Positions 3,713 to 49,244 of a stretch of 64,000 nt of DNA are shown piece after piece (positions within the stretch are counted from its first letter, which is position 1; each line of letters starts with the position of its first letter). Origin of the DNA: a virus; IMG/VR virus record IMGVR_UViG_2847502069_000001, positions 5,495 to 69,494 of that record; one strand, written 5' to 3'. The position numbers were made by a program, and so were the translations under genes. The notes beneath the pieces were generated by a model. That model saw only the letters and a list, made by a program, of their open reading frames with translations, made no database searches and had not been told where the DNA came from.

Positions 3713-4108
3713 ATGACAGTAAAAATCAAGCTAGAGTTACTTCAATTTTTGAATGTGGCACTTAATCACACTCGATTTATCGCAGTCACGCGCCAACCTG
3801 ATGAATTAAAGAATAGATCCTTGTCATCATTTCTTGGTCAAAAATTTGAAGTAGTTGCTTTTGAAGATAATAAATATTTTCAATTCAAAAATAAACAATG
3901 GGTACCAGTAACCGAAGACAGAGCAGACCGAGTTTTAGTCAGGATAAATGCTGCTGGATTCTTTGAAGATTATAAGCCAACTCAATTTGGTTCAGATTTT
4001 CCAGATACGAAAGCAGCATTAGAATTTTGGGAACAAATCAATCGTAGATGGGTAAAACTAACTCAAGATATGCTCGTGTTAGGAGTTGAGAACGTGAGGG
4101 ATAGATGA
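3713..4108 (+). CDS. Phage hypothetical protein
   Basis: 131-aa ORF directly after rep. Confidence 0.75.
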   Translation: MTVKIKLELLQFLNVALNHTRFIAVTRQPDELKNRSLSSFLGQKFEVVAFEDNKYFQFKNKQWVPVTEDRADRVLVRINAAGFFEDYKPTQFGSDFPDTKAALEFWEQINRRWVKLTQDMLVLGVENVRDR

Positions 4109-4323
4109 TATTAAGAAAGTTAATGCCATACCTACAAGATGAAATCTGGATAGATATCACAGAACAATCGGATGGTTATTATAAAAATCATATCGGAAAA
4201 GCTCCAAAATTTATGATAACAGGACCTGTTCTTAGTTATGATGTCCTTGAAGTGAATGGTCCTATCGAAGCACGGGGAATCATAATTCTAAAAGTTTTAG
4301 TGAAGTGGAGAGGCAAAAAGTGA
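4105..4323 (+). CDS. Phage hypothetical protein
   Basis: ATGA-coupled ORF. Confidence 0.65.
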   Translation: MILRKLMPYLQDEIWIDITEQSDGYYKNHIGKAPKFMITGPVLSYDVLEVNGPIEARGIIILKVLVKWRGKK

Positions 4324-5282: not shown

Positions 5283-5835
5283 AGAAATGAAAAGACCGAT
5301 TAGCAATATCACTCAAGATAGTATCAAGCCTTTACTAAGCAATGCCGTAGAGTTTTATACTAACAAAAATAGGGAAGCTCACAAATGTATTCAAGAACGA
5401 GATGAATATATCAATTATCTTGAAAGTAAACTAAGTAACGCAAAACAACAGCAAGCCCTGCCAGTCGTGCCTGATTTTGTTGCAGAGTGGATTGAATGTG
5501 TAAAAGAAAAAAATAATAATGCGCTAGCTTTACTAGATGATGATAATATGCCAGACGATGTGAATGAGTGGCTTTTCTTTCAAAGAAATGATGACAATAT
5601 CAAATTGATTCTTCGTGCATGGCTAGACGGCTACACAGTCGAAAAACCGCAGCTGTTCTATTTGGTGAATACACTGACAAGACAATATCTGTATCGTAGA
5701 GATAAGGTTAGTTTTGGCGAGCAAGGTTATTGTAAGGACTATGACGATAAACCACTTGCTTACTGTTTATTCACCAAACAAGAAATCGACAGCATGCAAA
5801 CTGGGAGCTATGAACAGATTGAGGTGGAAGAATGA
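5275..5835 (+). CDS. DUF1642-family phage protein
   Basis: LPVVPDFVAEWIE...LRAWLDGYTVEK motif; GGAGG RBS. Confidence 0.8.
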   Translation: MTKEMKRPISNITQDSIKPLLSNAVEFYTNKNREAHKCIQERDEYINYLESKLSNAKQQQALPVVPDFVAEWIECVKEKNNNALALLDDDNMPDDVNEWLFFQRNDDNIKLILRAWLDGYTVEKPQLFYLVNTLTRQYLYRRDKVSFGEQGYCKDYDDKPLAYCLFTKQEIDSMQTGSYEQIEVEE

Positions 5836-7290: not shown

Positions 7291-8083
7291 ACTCCTGCTA
7301 GACAACAAATAGCAAGAGTTAAGTATGAACTGGCCGAGTTCTAATTTAATGTAAAATAAATCCAAAATCTAGATTAATTTGACCAAGATTATTATAGCAC
7401 TATTAACATTATTTTGTCGTTAACAAATGGCAACAAAAAAGTCTCGGTTGGCCAGTCGAGACATGGATAGTTATTTCAAATTCGCTAGTTATATTTTATC
7501 CAATTTTATTATAACACTATTATAAAACAACTATTGTTAACAAAAGATAATATAAAAGCCCGAACTGACCAGGTTCGAGCGAAATTGTGAATTCTAACAT
7601 TTATATTTTTTTGGTCCACTCTAGTATAGCACTAATCAAATTAAAAAGCCCAAGCTGACCAAGCTTGAGCGATTGTTGTAAAAATTATTAGTTACTATTG
7701 AATGGTCACATTCATTATACCACTGATTAATTGATAACTATGAAATTTGATTTATTAAAAAATCTTTAACTATAACAAAAAACCCGAACTGACCAAGTTC
7801 GAGTTATATGTTCTAGGTTTAAATTTTATTCTTAAAATTTAGGTCTACTACATTATACCATAAGAAAAATAAGTTATAACAAAAAAGCTCGAGTTGACCA
7901 AGCTCGAGCGAAATACTGAACAATGTTGCGAAGTTTATTTTTGGTCTTAAATATTATAGCACACAGAACAATAATTTATACCAAAATAAAAAAGCCCGAA
8001 CTGACCAGGCTCGAGTGCAAGAGTTAGTAAACAACTTAGTTCTATTATTATTATAATATTTTTGGTCAGTTATATTATATCAC
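7285..8083 (-). ncRNA. Tandem array of 7 putative small-RNA transcription units
   Basis: Each unit on the minus strand: TGnTATA(A/C)T, 6 nt, GACC (GGTC or GGAT in the two divergent units), AU-rich variable region, GC-rich hairpin, U-run. Confidence 0.8.
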
Positions 8084-28545: not shown

Positions 28546-28833
28546 ATGAAAACAATTGATAAAGGCACGCTTACACGTACAGTTTTGCTTTGGTTAGCTA
28601 TCATTAACCAAATTCTAACAGCATTGGGTATTAATCCATTGCCGCTTGACGATAATACTGTTAGCACTGTAATTACAACAGTTTTTGCACTTTGGGCATG
28701 GTGGAAGAACAACGACTTCACTCATGCAGCAAAAAAAGGAACTGAACTTACTAAAAGTTTAAAAAATGGAGACAGTGTTCAAGTAGTTAAGGCATCTGAT
28801 TCTGACCACGAATTCACAGAAGGAGGCGAATAA
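28546..28833 (+). CDS. Holin (SPP1 family)
   Basis: GTLTRTVLL...ALWAWWKNNDFT. Confidence 0.9.
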   Translation: MKTIDKGTLTRTVLLWLAIINQILTALGINPLPLDDNTVSTVITTVFALWAWWKNNDFTHAAKKGTELTKSLKNGDSVQVVKASDSDHEFTEGGE

Positions 28834-29612
28834 TGTCAAGTATTGAAAATATGATTGCTTGGATGCAAGCACGAAAAGGTAAAGTTACTTACTCAATGAC
28901 ATCGCGAATGGGGCCGAACAGTTATGATTGCAGCTCGTCAGTGTTTTTTGCCATGATTGCCGGTGGCTTTCTGTCAGCTGGTTCAATGGGTAATACTGAA
29001 ACCTTGTTTGGGATGTCAGGAACAAAACTGAAAGAAATCAGTCGAGGAGAGGTGCAACGTGGTGATATTTTTATCTCAGGTACTCCAGGAGGTTCGGCTG
29101 GTTCAGATGGACACACAGGTATTTTCCTAAGCAATGGTTCATTCATTCACTGCTCTTATACTCACAACGGAATTGCGGTAGATACGAATGACGCTTATAT
29201 GAGTACTCGCTTGCCACATCACTTTTATCGAATTGTTGGCTCAGGTTCAGGGAATACTGACAACAAGCCTCAAATGGTTAAATTAAATCTTGACGGCCAA
29301 TTTGGAAATGCGACAGCTAAACGACTTCAAGAATACTTTGATACAGCCGGAAAAGACGGAGTGATCAGTCACCAGTACAAACAAACCTTTAACCAAAATA
29401 TTTATGCTGCACAGTTTGATTCATCACTGACAGGTTCAAACGTGGTTAAAGCATTGCAAAGATTCTTAGGCATTGGCCAAGACGGACTGTTTGGCCAAGG
29501 TACAATTAAAGCACTACAAAAGCACCTTGGAACCACACAAGACGGAACTATTAGCCCAGTATCTGATTCTGTTAGAGAATTACAACGTCGATTAAATGCG
29601 AATAAATTATAA
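28833..29612 (+). CDS. Endolysin (Amidase_5 catalytic domain + peptidoglycan-binding domain)
   Basis: YSMTSRMGPNSYDCSS, GHTGIF, DGQFGNAT/DGLFGQGT repeats. Confidence 0.93.
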   Translation: MSSIENMIAWMQARKGKVTYSMTSRMGPNSYDCSSSVFFAMIAGGFLSAGSMGNTETLFGMSGTKLKEISRGEVQRGDIFISGTPGGSAGSDGHTGIFLSNGSFIHCSYTHNGIAVDTNDAYMSTRLPHHFYRIVGSGSGNTDNKPQMVKLNLDGQFGNATAKRLQEYFDTAGKDGVISHQYKQTFNQNIYAAQFDSSLTGSNVVKALQRFLGIGQDGLFGQGTIKALQKHLGTTQDGTISPVSDSVRELQRRLNANKL

Positions 29613-29659
29613 AAATTAACCCTGACTTCTGTCGAACGTTTTTCTTTGTTCTCGTTAAG

Positions 29660-30670
29660 AAGTTTGCTATAATTAATTTCTAACACTGATCCCCCTTAAT
29701 TGGGGGTCTTTTTTTGTTAATAAATGTTACTGTTTTTCTTAAGATAAATTAGTATAATATCCTTATCGTAAATGCTATTCCAAATACAAATACAAATAAC
29801 TAAGTATTTCTGGAGAGATAAAGCGCCCTTTTCCAAAGCGAGGGCGTTTTTCTTTACAAGGAAAGCAGTAAATTGTATAATGATCCTACCTTTTAAATTA
29901 AAGTTATAAATAACTCCGAGAACATCGTTTTGACTAAGTGACGGTGTTTTTTTATTTGAAAACGAATACAAAAAGTAGTAGAATGAATTCATCTTACCTA
30001 TATAAGATGACGTCTGCCCTTAAACAGGGCTTTTTGTTCTAGTTAAGGAAGTAGATATATACTATATTTACCCAAAAATATAAAATTTTTCATAAAGTTT
30101 ACTCCAAAGCGTCCCTCTCCTAACTGGGGCGCTTTTTTTGTGCTATAATATAGTCGGGATGATTGTGGGATTTCATCCTATTTCTAGAGTTAAGCTGCTC
30201 TTCGGAGCGGCTTTTTTTATTTGTTTCATATGATATAACGAAACTCTTAAACATGGGTGTCAGCAATTTTCTGGCATTTTTCATATTATTTTGTAAATGA
30301 GAAAAAAGAAGTAAATAAATGTATAATCAAAATTTTTCATAAAGTTTTAGTCCTAATATCCCTCTGAACAAGGGGCATTTTTTGAATTGTCTATATAATT
30401 CTTGACAAAATAAAATGATAAGAGTAAACTAAGAAAATCAAGATCTAATCTTGATATCTCCTAATCTAAGAGTTCTAAAACTCTTAACAAATTATTTAAC
30501 GCCCTTTATAGGGTGTTTTTTCATAAATTTATGCACAAAAAAAGCTCTAGCTGGATGACTTCAAGGAGTCCAACTAGAGGATGATGAGTGTTAGTACAAA
30601 TTCAGAAAAAGTTTCGTGTGTACAAAAAATAAGAGGTACCAACAATTTAAATATTATCAATTTTTTAGAC
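29660..30670 (+). ncRNA. Cluster of about 9 short promoter-terminator cassettes (plus one on the minus strand at ~30535-30670)
   Basis: Alternating -10 hexamers (several with -35 at 17 nt) and GC hairpin-plus-T-run terminators; no credible ORFs. Confidence 0.65.
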
Positions 30671-30815
30671 AATTGTCAATTATTTATAGTAGTGTGTTAT
30701 AATATATTTAGTGGATGAGAAATTGATTTCTTTTACAGTGTCTTTGATAATCTGCAGTTCCGTCCACACATATCTGATATAATAACCAAGATAAGTGCTA
30801 TAGATTATCAAAATC

Positions 30816-30876
30816 GGTTCTTTAGCTCAGTTGGTAGCTAACCGTTCGGTCGCTGGTTCGAGTCCAGCAAGAACCA
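30816..30876 (+). tRNA. tRNA remnant lacking an anticodon arm
   Basis: GGTTCTT acceptor, TAGCTCAGTTGGTAG D-arm, GCTGG-TTCGAGT-CCAGC T-arm, AAGAACCA 3' end; only 61 nt. Confidence 0.7.
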
Positions 30877-48283: not shown

Positions 48284-49120
48284 TTAGCTATTTGATGTAA
48301 ATGTTTTGATGTCTTTGTTTGAATAAAGAGGGTCTAGTTCAATTTTATTTTTAGTGTTAGAAATATTAATAAGGTAAATTATTTTATTACCATCATTAGA
48401 ACCAATAAAACCATTAGCGTAACCAATAATTTTATTATCACTTTTTAAAGGAATTTGGGTATCTGCATATGCATTAAAGGAATAATATTGAGGAGATTCA
48501 TAAAAATCTTCTCCTTTAAATTTAATATTTCCTGAAAAGTTAATAGATTGATAACTTAATTTTCCATCTTTTAAATTTTGAGAAAAAGTTGGTTTATAGG
48601 TGTAAACACCCCCAAAAAAGCCAGAAGAACCTTCACCAAGACCTACTTTTGCTTTATCTTTAAGACTCGTGTTTACATTCATATATGCTTCATATAAATT
48701 TGACTGCAAGGTTCTATCAAGGTATAGTTGCAAGATTTGGTTGAACGTAGGATATTTTGAATCTAAATAAAGTGATGAAGGGCTAATTTTAGCAAAAAAA
48801 TAACCTTTATCCATATTTTGATAAGTGAATGCATTACTTATTTTAGAATCTAATTGTGATTGGTTTGTTGCAATTACAGCAGTAATATGTGCTTCATCAC
48901 TAATCATATCATCAGCTACAGGTGTAACTTCAAACCAGATTTCATCTTTTAAATCATCAGTAAAGTGTTGAGAAATAGTTTCGTTTTGCTCAATTTTCTT
49001 AGTTTCACTTACCTTTGATTTACTATTAGATGTTGAGTCAGTTTTTTTATTTTCACATCCAGTAAATAATACTAGAGTTGATAACAATATTAAGGTTCCA
49101 ACAATTTTGATTTTTTTCAT
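48284..49120 (-). CDS. Lipoprotein, candidate superinfection-exclusion moron
   Basis: MKK signal, lipobox LFTG-C, Ser/Thr/Lys linker; opposite strand to lytic genes. Confidence 0.8.
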   Translation of the reverse strand: MKKIKIVGTLILLSTLVLFTGCENKKTDSTSNSKSKVSETKKIEQNETISQHFTDDLKDEIWFEVTPVADDMISDEAHITAVIATNQSQLDSKISNAFTYQNMDKGYFFAKISPSSLYLDSKYPTFNQILQLYLDRTLQSNLYEAYMNVNTSLKDKAKVGLGEGSSGFFGGVYTYKPTFSQNLKDGKLSYQSINFSGNIKFKGEDFYESPQYYSFNAYADTQIPLKSDNKIIGYANGFIGSNDGNKIIYLINISNTKNKIELDPLYSNKDIKTFTSNS

Positions 49121-49244
49121 AAAATTACTCCTACTAAAAATATTGTATCAGAAGATAAGAAATTAATCTAATTTTAAGTAATAGTTAAGAAAATAAGAAT
49201 TTATGATATAACAAGCATAATTAAATAATAGGAGAGGAAAAAGA

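Follow-up and report, generated by a model that had tools for sequence, protein, structure and literature searches.

The window analysed here is a stretch of 64,000 nucleotides from a viral record (IMGVR_UViG_2847502069_000001, positions 5,495 to 69,494), and the element in question is an island of RNA genes that starts directly 3′ of a lysin gene (28833-29612; all coordinates are those of the window) and ends with a tRNA-like element at 30816-30876. Homology to phage genomes ends just beyond this element, and attR was therefore placed there, so that the two abut; in the circular or permuted phage records D7138, D4044 and TPW22 the equivalent stretch sits between lysin and integrase, by which the region can be recognized as the spacer that separates lysin from attP in a P335-type Lactococcus prophage. 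The most economical reading is a series of stacked small-RNA (sRNA) genes, each independent of the others, eleven by the present count (U1-U9 in the plus orientation, U10 in the minus orientation, and U11 reading into the tRNA-like element); two of them, U5 and U8, belong by homology to an sRNA family of the host genus that is of the type of the cia-dependent small RNAs (csRNAs) of streptococci, reportedly described by Halfmann in 2007. The units are listed below, with predicted RNA lengths and, for some, the z score of the fold against shuffles (fold z).

U1, 29665-29716, plus strand: extended -10 TGcTATAAT (29665-29673), hairpin 29688-29708 with T-run; predicted RNA of ~37 nt.
U2, 29753-29852, plus strand: TATAAT (29753-29758), RNA of ~88 nt, 11-bp terminator 29820-29850; fold z -2.8.
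U3, 29853-29955, plus strand: TTTACA-17-TATAAT, RNA of ~68 nt, terminator 29918-29951.
U4, 29956-30035, plus strand: TTGAAA-17-TAGAAT, RNA of ~45 nt made of two hairpins.
U5, 30031-30139, plus strand: csRNA-type sRNA gene; promoter TTTTTG-N5-GTTAAG (30031-30047), N10, TATACT (30058-30063); RNA ~30070-30139, seed UUUUUCAUAAAGUUUACUCC at 30086-30105, terminator 30106-30139; fold z -5.1.
U6, 30141-30218, plus strand: extended -10 TGcTATAAT (30141-30149); RNA of ~63 nt in which a single-stranded linker joins a 5′ hairpin to the terminator; fold z -3.6.
U7, 30231-30281, plus strand: promoter-like TGaTATAAC; RNA of ~36 nt, mostly terminator.
U8, 30320-30383, plus strand: second csRNA-type unit; TATAAT (30322-30327); seed variant at 30333-30354 with AGUCC instead of ACUCC (one anti-Shine-Dalgarno, anti-SD, base changed); weak terminator, hairpin 30361-30375 with T-run.
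U9, 30402-30521, plus strand: TTGACA-17-TAAACT; RNA of ~85 nt with three hairpins and the unpaired linker AUCUCCUAAUC; fold z -6.4.
U10, 30537-30679, minus strand: TTGACA-17-TAATAT (30679-30651), RNA of ~108 nt, terminator 30575-30537.
U11, 30695-30876, plus strand: extended -10 TGtTATAAT (30695-30703), structured leader of ~100 nt, 61-nt tRNA-like element 30816-30876.

Regarding the anatomy of the island, a scan for terminators between 29400 and 31400 gave 11 candidate sites, compared with 0.7 ± 0.9 in shuffled sequence, a 16-fold enrichment; between 29640 and 30880 the intrinsic terminators number nine on the plus strand and one on the minus strand, each of them downstream of a promoter-like -10 element. 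Two terminator hairpins with large loops (29823-29847 and 30108-30133) escaped the scan and were recovered by folding; every folded unit RNA has a 3′ hairpin and U-run, and 8 of the 9 RNAs are stabler than their shuffles, with z from -1.9 to -6.4. Near-consensus promoters stand on the plus strand at 29853 (TTTACA-17-TATAAT), 29956 (TTGAAA-17-TAGAAT) and 30402 (TTGACA-17-TAAACT), and on the minus strand at 30679 (TTGACA-17-TAATAT). Every element of the promoter and terminator battery described in the initial annotation is present within ~10 nt of the place given for it; the ~9 small transcription units proposed there are 11 in the present count. Tandem repeats are absent from the array apart from a 6-nt triplet, and U5 and U8, with an exact 19-nt core in common, are its only related pair.

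The array matches 94 phage records, all of them Lactococcus phages or unnamed phage assemblies, and none spans 80% of it. Across these records, and in unit-by-unit BLAST against 13 phage loci, the cassettes form a mosaic whose boundaries fall at terminator/promoter junctions. The widespread units are U2, U6, U10, U11 and the tRNA-like element; U2 and U6 each occur in at least 10 of the 13 loci, bIL309, bIL286, TP712, D7138 and D4044 included, and they are the only units carried by bIL285 and Q33. U3-U4-U5 travel together in bIL311, bIL312 and ul36.t1, and U5-like units are found in 58 phage records; in the phage collection U8 and U9 were found in no record, U9 being unique to the window. TP712, a prophage of L. 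lactis MG1363, has U1, U2, a U5 variant, U6, U11 and the tRNA-like element in common with the window. In every aligned variant the -10 boxes are retained, and the unit bodies are as conserved as the hairpins. Plus-strand small open reading frames (ORFs) annotated in this stretch of related phages (TP712 orf58, D7138 hypotheticals, bIL312 orf26, r1t ORF50 and Q33 Orf52) were rejected as spurious because they cross terminators and some differ between phages.

As for the identity of U5, the lead was a full-length match to the Rfam csRNA model (RF02379) at 27.9 bits, below the gathering cut-off of 57; within the array the tRNA-like element alone gave an Rfam match at the gathering threshold, and the other sub-threshold matches (SorY, Phe leader, istR and others) were set aside as terminator-driven noise. 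When the array was compared with 20 Lactococcus-genus genomes, the U5 body was the only one to recur at many chromosomal, non-prophage sites (loci L027, L032-L036, L042-L045, L050, L051, L055, L056 and L062). The chromosomal RNA is ~70 nt long; its first 38 nt hardly vary and include UUUUUCAUAAAGUUUACUCC, with anti-AUG and anti-SD letters, and are followed by an A-rich spacer and a terminator with compensatory changes in 7 of its 11 pairs (94.5% paired; 0 of 500 shuffles as good) and a conserved apex, CGGCUGGUUACCG. Upstream, direct TTTAG/TTAAG repeats stand at 11-bp spacing, the last of them ending exactly 10 bp before TATAAT. The genes are sometimes in tandem, 320 nt apart, and two such tandem genes in one Lactococcus genome are intact and show no phage junction.

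A covariance model, R1, was built from 14 chromosomal Lactococcus copies only, and it has exactly two matches in the window: U5 (30067-30137, 39.8 bits, E 2.6e-5) and U8 (30320-30383, 30.4 bits, E 0.002). Across 81 Streptococcaceae genomes, R1 found the family in 19 of the 20 of the Lactococcus genus, at 1-8 copies each, and gave weaker matches in 12 of the 61 others. Ten of the non-Lactococcus sites were inspected, and six have a TTAAG-type CiaR box upstream (TTTAAG-N5-TTTAAG-N10-TATAAT or a near variant); R1 scores 31-47 bits for genes behind TTTAAG-N5-TTTAAG-N10-TATAAT in other Streptococcaceae, and in an alignment the CiaR-box sites and the Lactococcus family have the core AUUCC..UUUUUCAUAA..ACUCCUAAA in common. 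csRNA genes are defined by the TTAAG-type CiaR box of their promoter (Marx et al. 2010, PMC3091779), and the canonical form of this box at the R1 matches in other Streptococcaceae marks those RNA genes as csRNAs. The Rfam csRNA model misses, at E 0.001, the non-Lactococcus sRNA genes that were fetched, six with TTAAG-type CiaR boxes among them, which indicates that the model is narrow. Through their homology under R1, U5 and U8 are phage-borne members of a csRNA-type sRNA family of the host genus; this genus-wide family is not in Rfam, and a literature search found no paper on it or on lactococcal csRNAs.

The features by which csRNAs are recognized can be followed one by one. The published box, NTTAAG-N5-TTTAAG, ends 10 bp 5′ of the -10 and tolerates one mismatch in each repeat, but none at the G's (Marx et al. 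2010, PMC3091779); all 14 chromosomal copies in Lactococcus have the proximal xTTAAG-N10-TATAAT, and 10 of the 14 a distal xxTxAG. An intrinsic terminator is expected within 250 nt of the -10 in the same work, and both phage units have one, U5 with the hairpin 30106-30135 and U8 with the hairpin 30361-30375, each followed by a T-run. Pairing to a Shine-Dalgarno sequence and start codon is provided for by CAU and, after 8-9 nt, (A/G)UCC at 30086-30105 and 30333-30354, the two strings that the initial annotation had taken for the complement of a ribosome-binding site (RBS) and whose letters and positions are exact. Finally, both units are homologous, under R1, to canonical CiaR-box sRNA genes. 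U5 retains the seed of the chromosomal family letter for letter, while its terminator is phage-specific and common to all phage copies; in D7138 and bIL286 a U5-type body is driven from TT(G/T)ACA-17-TATAAT.

Two observations touch on these features. TTAAG half-sites lie 8, 9 and 10 nt upstream of the -10 in U1, U2 and U5, respectively (29654-29673, 29741-29758 and 30042-30063); of the three, only U5 has the csRNA spacing, and the G of the U2 half-site is not conserved among phages. U5-like units are also present on four Lactococcus plasmids (NZ_CP070857, NZ_CP117407, NZ_CP117405 and NZ_CP071292), and recall the plasmid-borne csRNA9 of S. thermophilus pST0.

Regarding the regulator, CiaH homologues were reported not to be found in Lactococcus (Marx et al. 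2010, PMC3091779). A query back-translated from the CiaR recognition helix, as published, matched three Lactococcus genomes exactly once each and had no match in the controls. The matched gene (L058:925-1602, in L. cremoris HP; also in L059 and L060) encodes a 225-amino acid OmpR-type regulator whose helix, VVEVYMSKIRKKL, agrees with the published one at 11 of 13 positions; four other Streptococcaceae genomes have one orthologue each, with 75-80% identity to the protein and in one case the exact pneumococcal helix, and paralogues reach at most 41%. Downstream lies an ORF of at least ~365-410 amino acids, a candidate kinase by position; NCBIfam contains no CiaR-specific model. Judged by these identities, Lactococcus encodes a single, clear CiaR orthologue, so that the regulator required for a CiaR-csRNA circuit is present in the genus.

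The pairing capacity of the units was assessed with the 77 translation-initiation regions (TIRs) of the 74-kb contig, duplex energies being compared with those of 200 dinucleotide shuffles per unit. For U5, 1 of 200 shuffles had as good a mean energy over the TIRs, and 9 of 200 were as good at its best TIR (lipoprotein 49120); the corresponding figures are 6 and 15 of 200 for U8 (best TIR +55342), 27 and 1 of 200 for U9 (ORF 4105, -30.6 kcal/mol), 18 and 42 of 200 for U3 (+1483), and 38 and 106 of 200 for U6 (+16625). A 40-shuffle test of U4 and U10 disclosed no anti-TIR property beyond shuffles. U5 and U8 act as generic anti-TIR RNAs in these tests; the anti-RBS character that had been read into several units holds for these two, which are better than 199 and 194 of 200 shuffles, is weak for U9, and is not supported for U3, U4, U6 and U10.

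U9 (30448-30487) is imperfectly complementary, over ~38 nt, to the RBS region 4080-4117 of a 72-amino acid early ORF of the same prophage (4105-4323). Its candidacy as a strong outlier was rejected, since whole-contig minima of dinucleotide shuffles run from -24.5 to -35.0 and the pairing is not outstanding among them; it is kept as a lead within the TIR set only. BLAST of every unit body for complementary stretches of the 74-kb contig returned noise only, and in six Lactococcus genomes the seed complement, at no more than 3 mismatches, was found essentially only in the sRNA genes themselves, with no near-perfect mRNA target.

From these data, the lysin-to-attR spacer is probably an island of ~11 autonomous sRNA genes that are exchanged as cassettes, in which U5 and U8 are csRNA-type copies that act on TIRs. 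Each unit would be served by a sigma-70-type promoter and an intrinsic terminator of its own, and units would be swapped as cassettes between related phages. U5 and U8 would be made as single-hairpin RNAs of ~70 nt whose unpaired 5′ part offers CAU and then, 8-9 nt on, CUCC, the mirror of the path from Shine-Dalgarno sequence to AUG; by analogy with the streptococcal csRNAs, they would bind host mRNAs at their TIRs and so keep ribosomes from loading. Transcription of the chromosomal copies would start from a CiaR-box-like promoter, and that of the phage copies from promoters with the proximal half-site (U5), with none (U8) or, in other phages, from TTGACA-17-TATAAT; with such reduced, absent or consensus elements, a prophage would turn on the csRNA regulon of the host independently of the two-component system. 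Transcription in the lysogen, host targets and a physiological pay-off would be expected on this reading, as would some function of the other nine units.

A more ambitious version is offered tentatively, as possible rather than probable. P335 phages may keep a portable "regulatory RNA island" by attP, where copies of host riboregulators are gathered and exchanged, with csRNA-type copies on constitutive promoters, so that in a lysogen a CiaR-like regulon for envelope, competence and autolysis would be permanently on, regardless of the sensor kinase; other cassettes, such as U9 against the RBS of its own ORF 4105, might tune the phage, and a CiaR-csRNA circuit would operate in Lactococcus.

Several results weigh against the csRNA-type island, in part or as a whole. 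Neither U5 nor a chromosomal Lactococcus copy (27.9 and 16.8 bits) reaches the 57-bit Rfam cut-off for csRNAs. In the U5 box the proximal GTTAAG-N10-TATACT fits and the distal TTTTTG has two mismatches; upstream of U8 a CiaR-like box is absent. A common variant of the U5 cassette, that of bIL286 and TP712, is diverged and has lost the CAU at the seed position. U8 is the one of the nine folded RNAs that is no stabler than shuffles (z +0.26), and neither the TIR test nor the six Lactococcus genomes made any specific target of U5 or U8 stand out. For the island as a whole, 9 of the 11 units are without an assigned family or target, and U1 and U7 contain little beyond a terminator; a loose promoter scan was not enriched (13 found against 10.0 expected), and for this reason the promoters were judged by their conservation. 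As for expression, U2, U3-U5, U6, U7-U8 and U10 are present in contigs that come from four RNA libraries, each of a different study, and one contig from a food fermentation covers 30228-30429, the U8 region; these contigs hint at transcription of the units, as they may hold DNA, cross unit borders, and are silent on transcript ends, strand and level. Accordingly, uncovered parts, contig ends and depths were not counted as evidence of absence, of ends or of expression level.

A rather unlikely alternative is that the region is a terminator stack with recombination debris: the terminators would insulate late lytic transcription from attP/int and host DNA, the cassettes would be leftovers of module swapping near attP, including relic att sites in csRNA-type genes, the promoter-like sites would be by-products of AT-richness, and the RNAs, if made, would be non-regulatory. 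The depositors of TPW22 (GenBank AF066865) annotated three terminators between lysin and attP and read them as plain terminators, U1 and U7 are near-bare hairpins, and the promoter scan agrees with this account; nine serial terminators are far beyond the needs of insulation, and the -10 boxes, several of them extended or with a consensus -35, are kept in every variant despite differing upstream context, just as the unit bodies are conserved as well as the hairpins. A link to attachment sites is suggested by U7, which adjoins attP in TPW22 (where it is annotated as a terminator) and in Dub35A and is internal in the window, by the proPhi1-type U5 copy, which starts exactly at the seed, without a promoter, in the manner of an att junction, and by r1t and P335ev, whose matches to U5 likewise cover only the 3′ half. 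Pneumococcal phages do integrate into csRNA genes, with the csRNA 3′ end beside attP (PMC6755750). Against such an origin, U5 is a complete gene, with promoter and 5′ part and not just a 3′ remnant, and the intact tandem pair of chromosomal family genes lacks any phage junction.

It is improbable that the units form an arsenal against defence genes, plasmid Abi genes or rival phages, in which U5 would silence the lipoprotein of a second prophage at its RBS-AUG (49113-49131), as the initial annotation had suggested. The island does occupy the slot where prophages carry lysogenic-conversion genes, and the lipoprotein TIR is the best of the 77 for U5 (-20.4 kcal/mol) and the second best for U8; an equally good TIR was obtained with 9 of 200 U5 dinucleotide shuffles, before correction for nine units, and the match follows the generic GGAG...AUGAAAAA pattern of the starts of Lactococcus secreted proteins. 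Evidence for defence or rival-phage genes as targets was not found, and the seed is identical to that of the chromosomal family in 19 genomes, most of them without this second prophage; being the host family's own seed, it speaks for mimicry of a host regulon rather than for such targets.

Finally, the "anti-RBS" strings might be real RBSs of tiny minus-strand genes for short hydrophobic peptides (MKNF...) in a type I toxin-antitoxin-like arrangement with the plus-strand RNAs as antitoxins, since the reverse complement of 30086-30105 reads GGAG, 8 nt, ATG and an 18-codon frame, and that of 30333-30354 opens 19 codons; this is extremely improbable, as the frame length varies among homologues (7, 11, 18 and 19 codons), the frame of the chromosomal copy has 10 codons and runs into the promoter, no minus-strand promoter was seen, each frame faces a plus-strand terminator, the streptococcal homologues would give unrelated peptides, and every position is invariant across the genus, third codon positions included, which fits a constraint on RNA rather than on protein. 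Two classes of toxin-antitoxin system were rejected directly: a type I system, in which a conserved small hydrophobic toxin ORF is expected, given minus-strand frames of 7-19 codons that are not conserved, and a type III system (ToxI/antiQ-like), for which there are neither ~35-nt tandem direct repeats nor an adjacent toxin gene.

The remaining units add detail to the island of sRNA genes. The U1 hairpin doubles as the lysin terminator, so that U1 is hardly more than this terminator with a promoter-like site; its cassette is 94-100% identical in bIL309, TP712, bIL311 and LT985574. The TATAAT of U2 is kept in all 14 distinct variants from phages and prophages. In the virulent P335 phage Q33 (L013, 1230-1250) a short deletion removes exactly the -10 of U2 and leaves body and terminator in place. 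U3 has homologues in bIL311, bIL312, ul36.t1 and two genome prophages, and U4 is 98-100% identical in the three phages named. U6 was present in all phage loci examined; TGnTATAAT or a one-base variant heads 16 of 16 distinct U6 variants, despite differing upstream context, and one pair of the U6 terminator has gone from G-C to A-U through a compensatory double change. An exact 24-nt string of U9 was not found in the viral contig collection. U10 is represented by six distinct variants, the window's own included, that are 93% identical and keep the promoter.

The U11 leader is conserved in 7 variants, and its stems covary. The tRNA-like element that it leads into scores 37.8 bits with the Rfam tRNA model, with no call by ARAGORN; compared with phage D6890, which has a full-length tRNA-Met at the equivalent place, it is a tRNA-Met copy lacking 13 nt, anticodon loop included, and thus forms no complete cloverleaf, and it is 97-100% conserved in at least 7 phages. 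Between the back-to-back promoters of U10 and U11 lies the palindrome GACAATTGTC (30668-30677), which in bIL311 and bIL312 stands upstream of U6; it could be an operator.

Elsewhere in the window, another sRNA array (7558-8015, minus strand) carries the terminator loop motif CUGGUCA, similar to the apex GCUGGUUAC in the terminators of the chromosomal csRNA-type genes; R1 has no match there. Enterococcus sp. prophages (L016 and L017) encode a lysin 84% identical to that of the window, and the one that was checked, L016, lacks a terminator stack of this kind, with 4 terminators where 2.0 are expected.

As for significance, P335 prophages are present in nearly all dairy Lactococcus strains. Should they produce RNAs that mimic an sRNA of a host stress circuit, under promoters that the host cannot switch off, lysogeny would alter the handling of envelope stress, autolysis or competence, traits that matter for starter performance and phage resistance. 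What appears to be new is the csRNA link of U5 and U8, together with a predicted CiaR-csRNA circuit in Lactococcus: the circuit would be extended from Streptococcus to a genus where it had been reported absent, and part of the unexplained prophage sRNAs of L. lactis would acquire a concrete, testable function.

In comparison with known systems, clusters of prophage sRNAs that plug into the post-transcriptional networks of the host are represented by the anti-sRNAs AgvB and AsxR and the Pas sRNAs of enterohaemorrhagic Escherichia coli (EHEC), and by the Spr RNAs of Staphylococcus aureus. These come from unrelated bacteria, the E. coli RNAs are Hfq-dependent, and there is no sequence relation to the present units; unlike the EHEC anti-sRNAs, which sponge a host sRNA, the island RNA copies one. 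Closer by is L. lactis MG1363, in which differential RNA sequencing (dRNA-seq) detected 28 sRNAs in the intergenic regions of prophages (van der Meulen et al. 2016, PMC4829306), thus in the same phage group and the same type of locus as the island, with only their count and no function given.

In the pneumococcal phage SpSL1 and type-1 prophages the att core is a conserved csRNA stretch (PMC6755750); as in the island, csRNA-derived sequence lies in the lysin-to-integrase spacer, and the conserved seed stretch is common to both. There the csRNA piece consists of the att core and a 3′ end that rebuilds the host gene, whereas here the prophage has a tRNA-like integration site, and the U5 gene, ~700 nt from attR, is complete and has a promoter of its own. 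Similarity to csRNAs on streptococcal phages and a plasmid-borne csRNA (pST0) were already known, and streptococcal csRNAs, of 51-202 nt, include some with a single stem-loop and all carry anti-SD/anti-AUG stretches (PMC3091779). U5 and U8 depart from them in their Lactococcus host, in scores below the Rfam cut-off, in a box that is defective or absent, in a phage-specific terminator and in being stacked among nine unrelated units. The lactococcal family resembles them in the short RNA, in the types with a terminator as the only hairpin, in the unpaired UUUUUCAUAA..CUCC, in the several paralogues per genome, and, at the chromosomal copies, in the TTAAG-type direct repeat that ends 10 bp 5′ of the -10.

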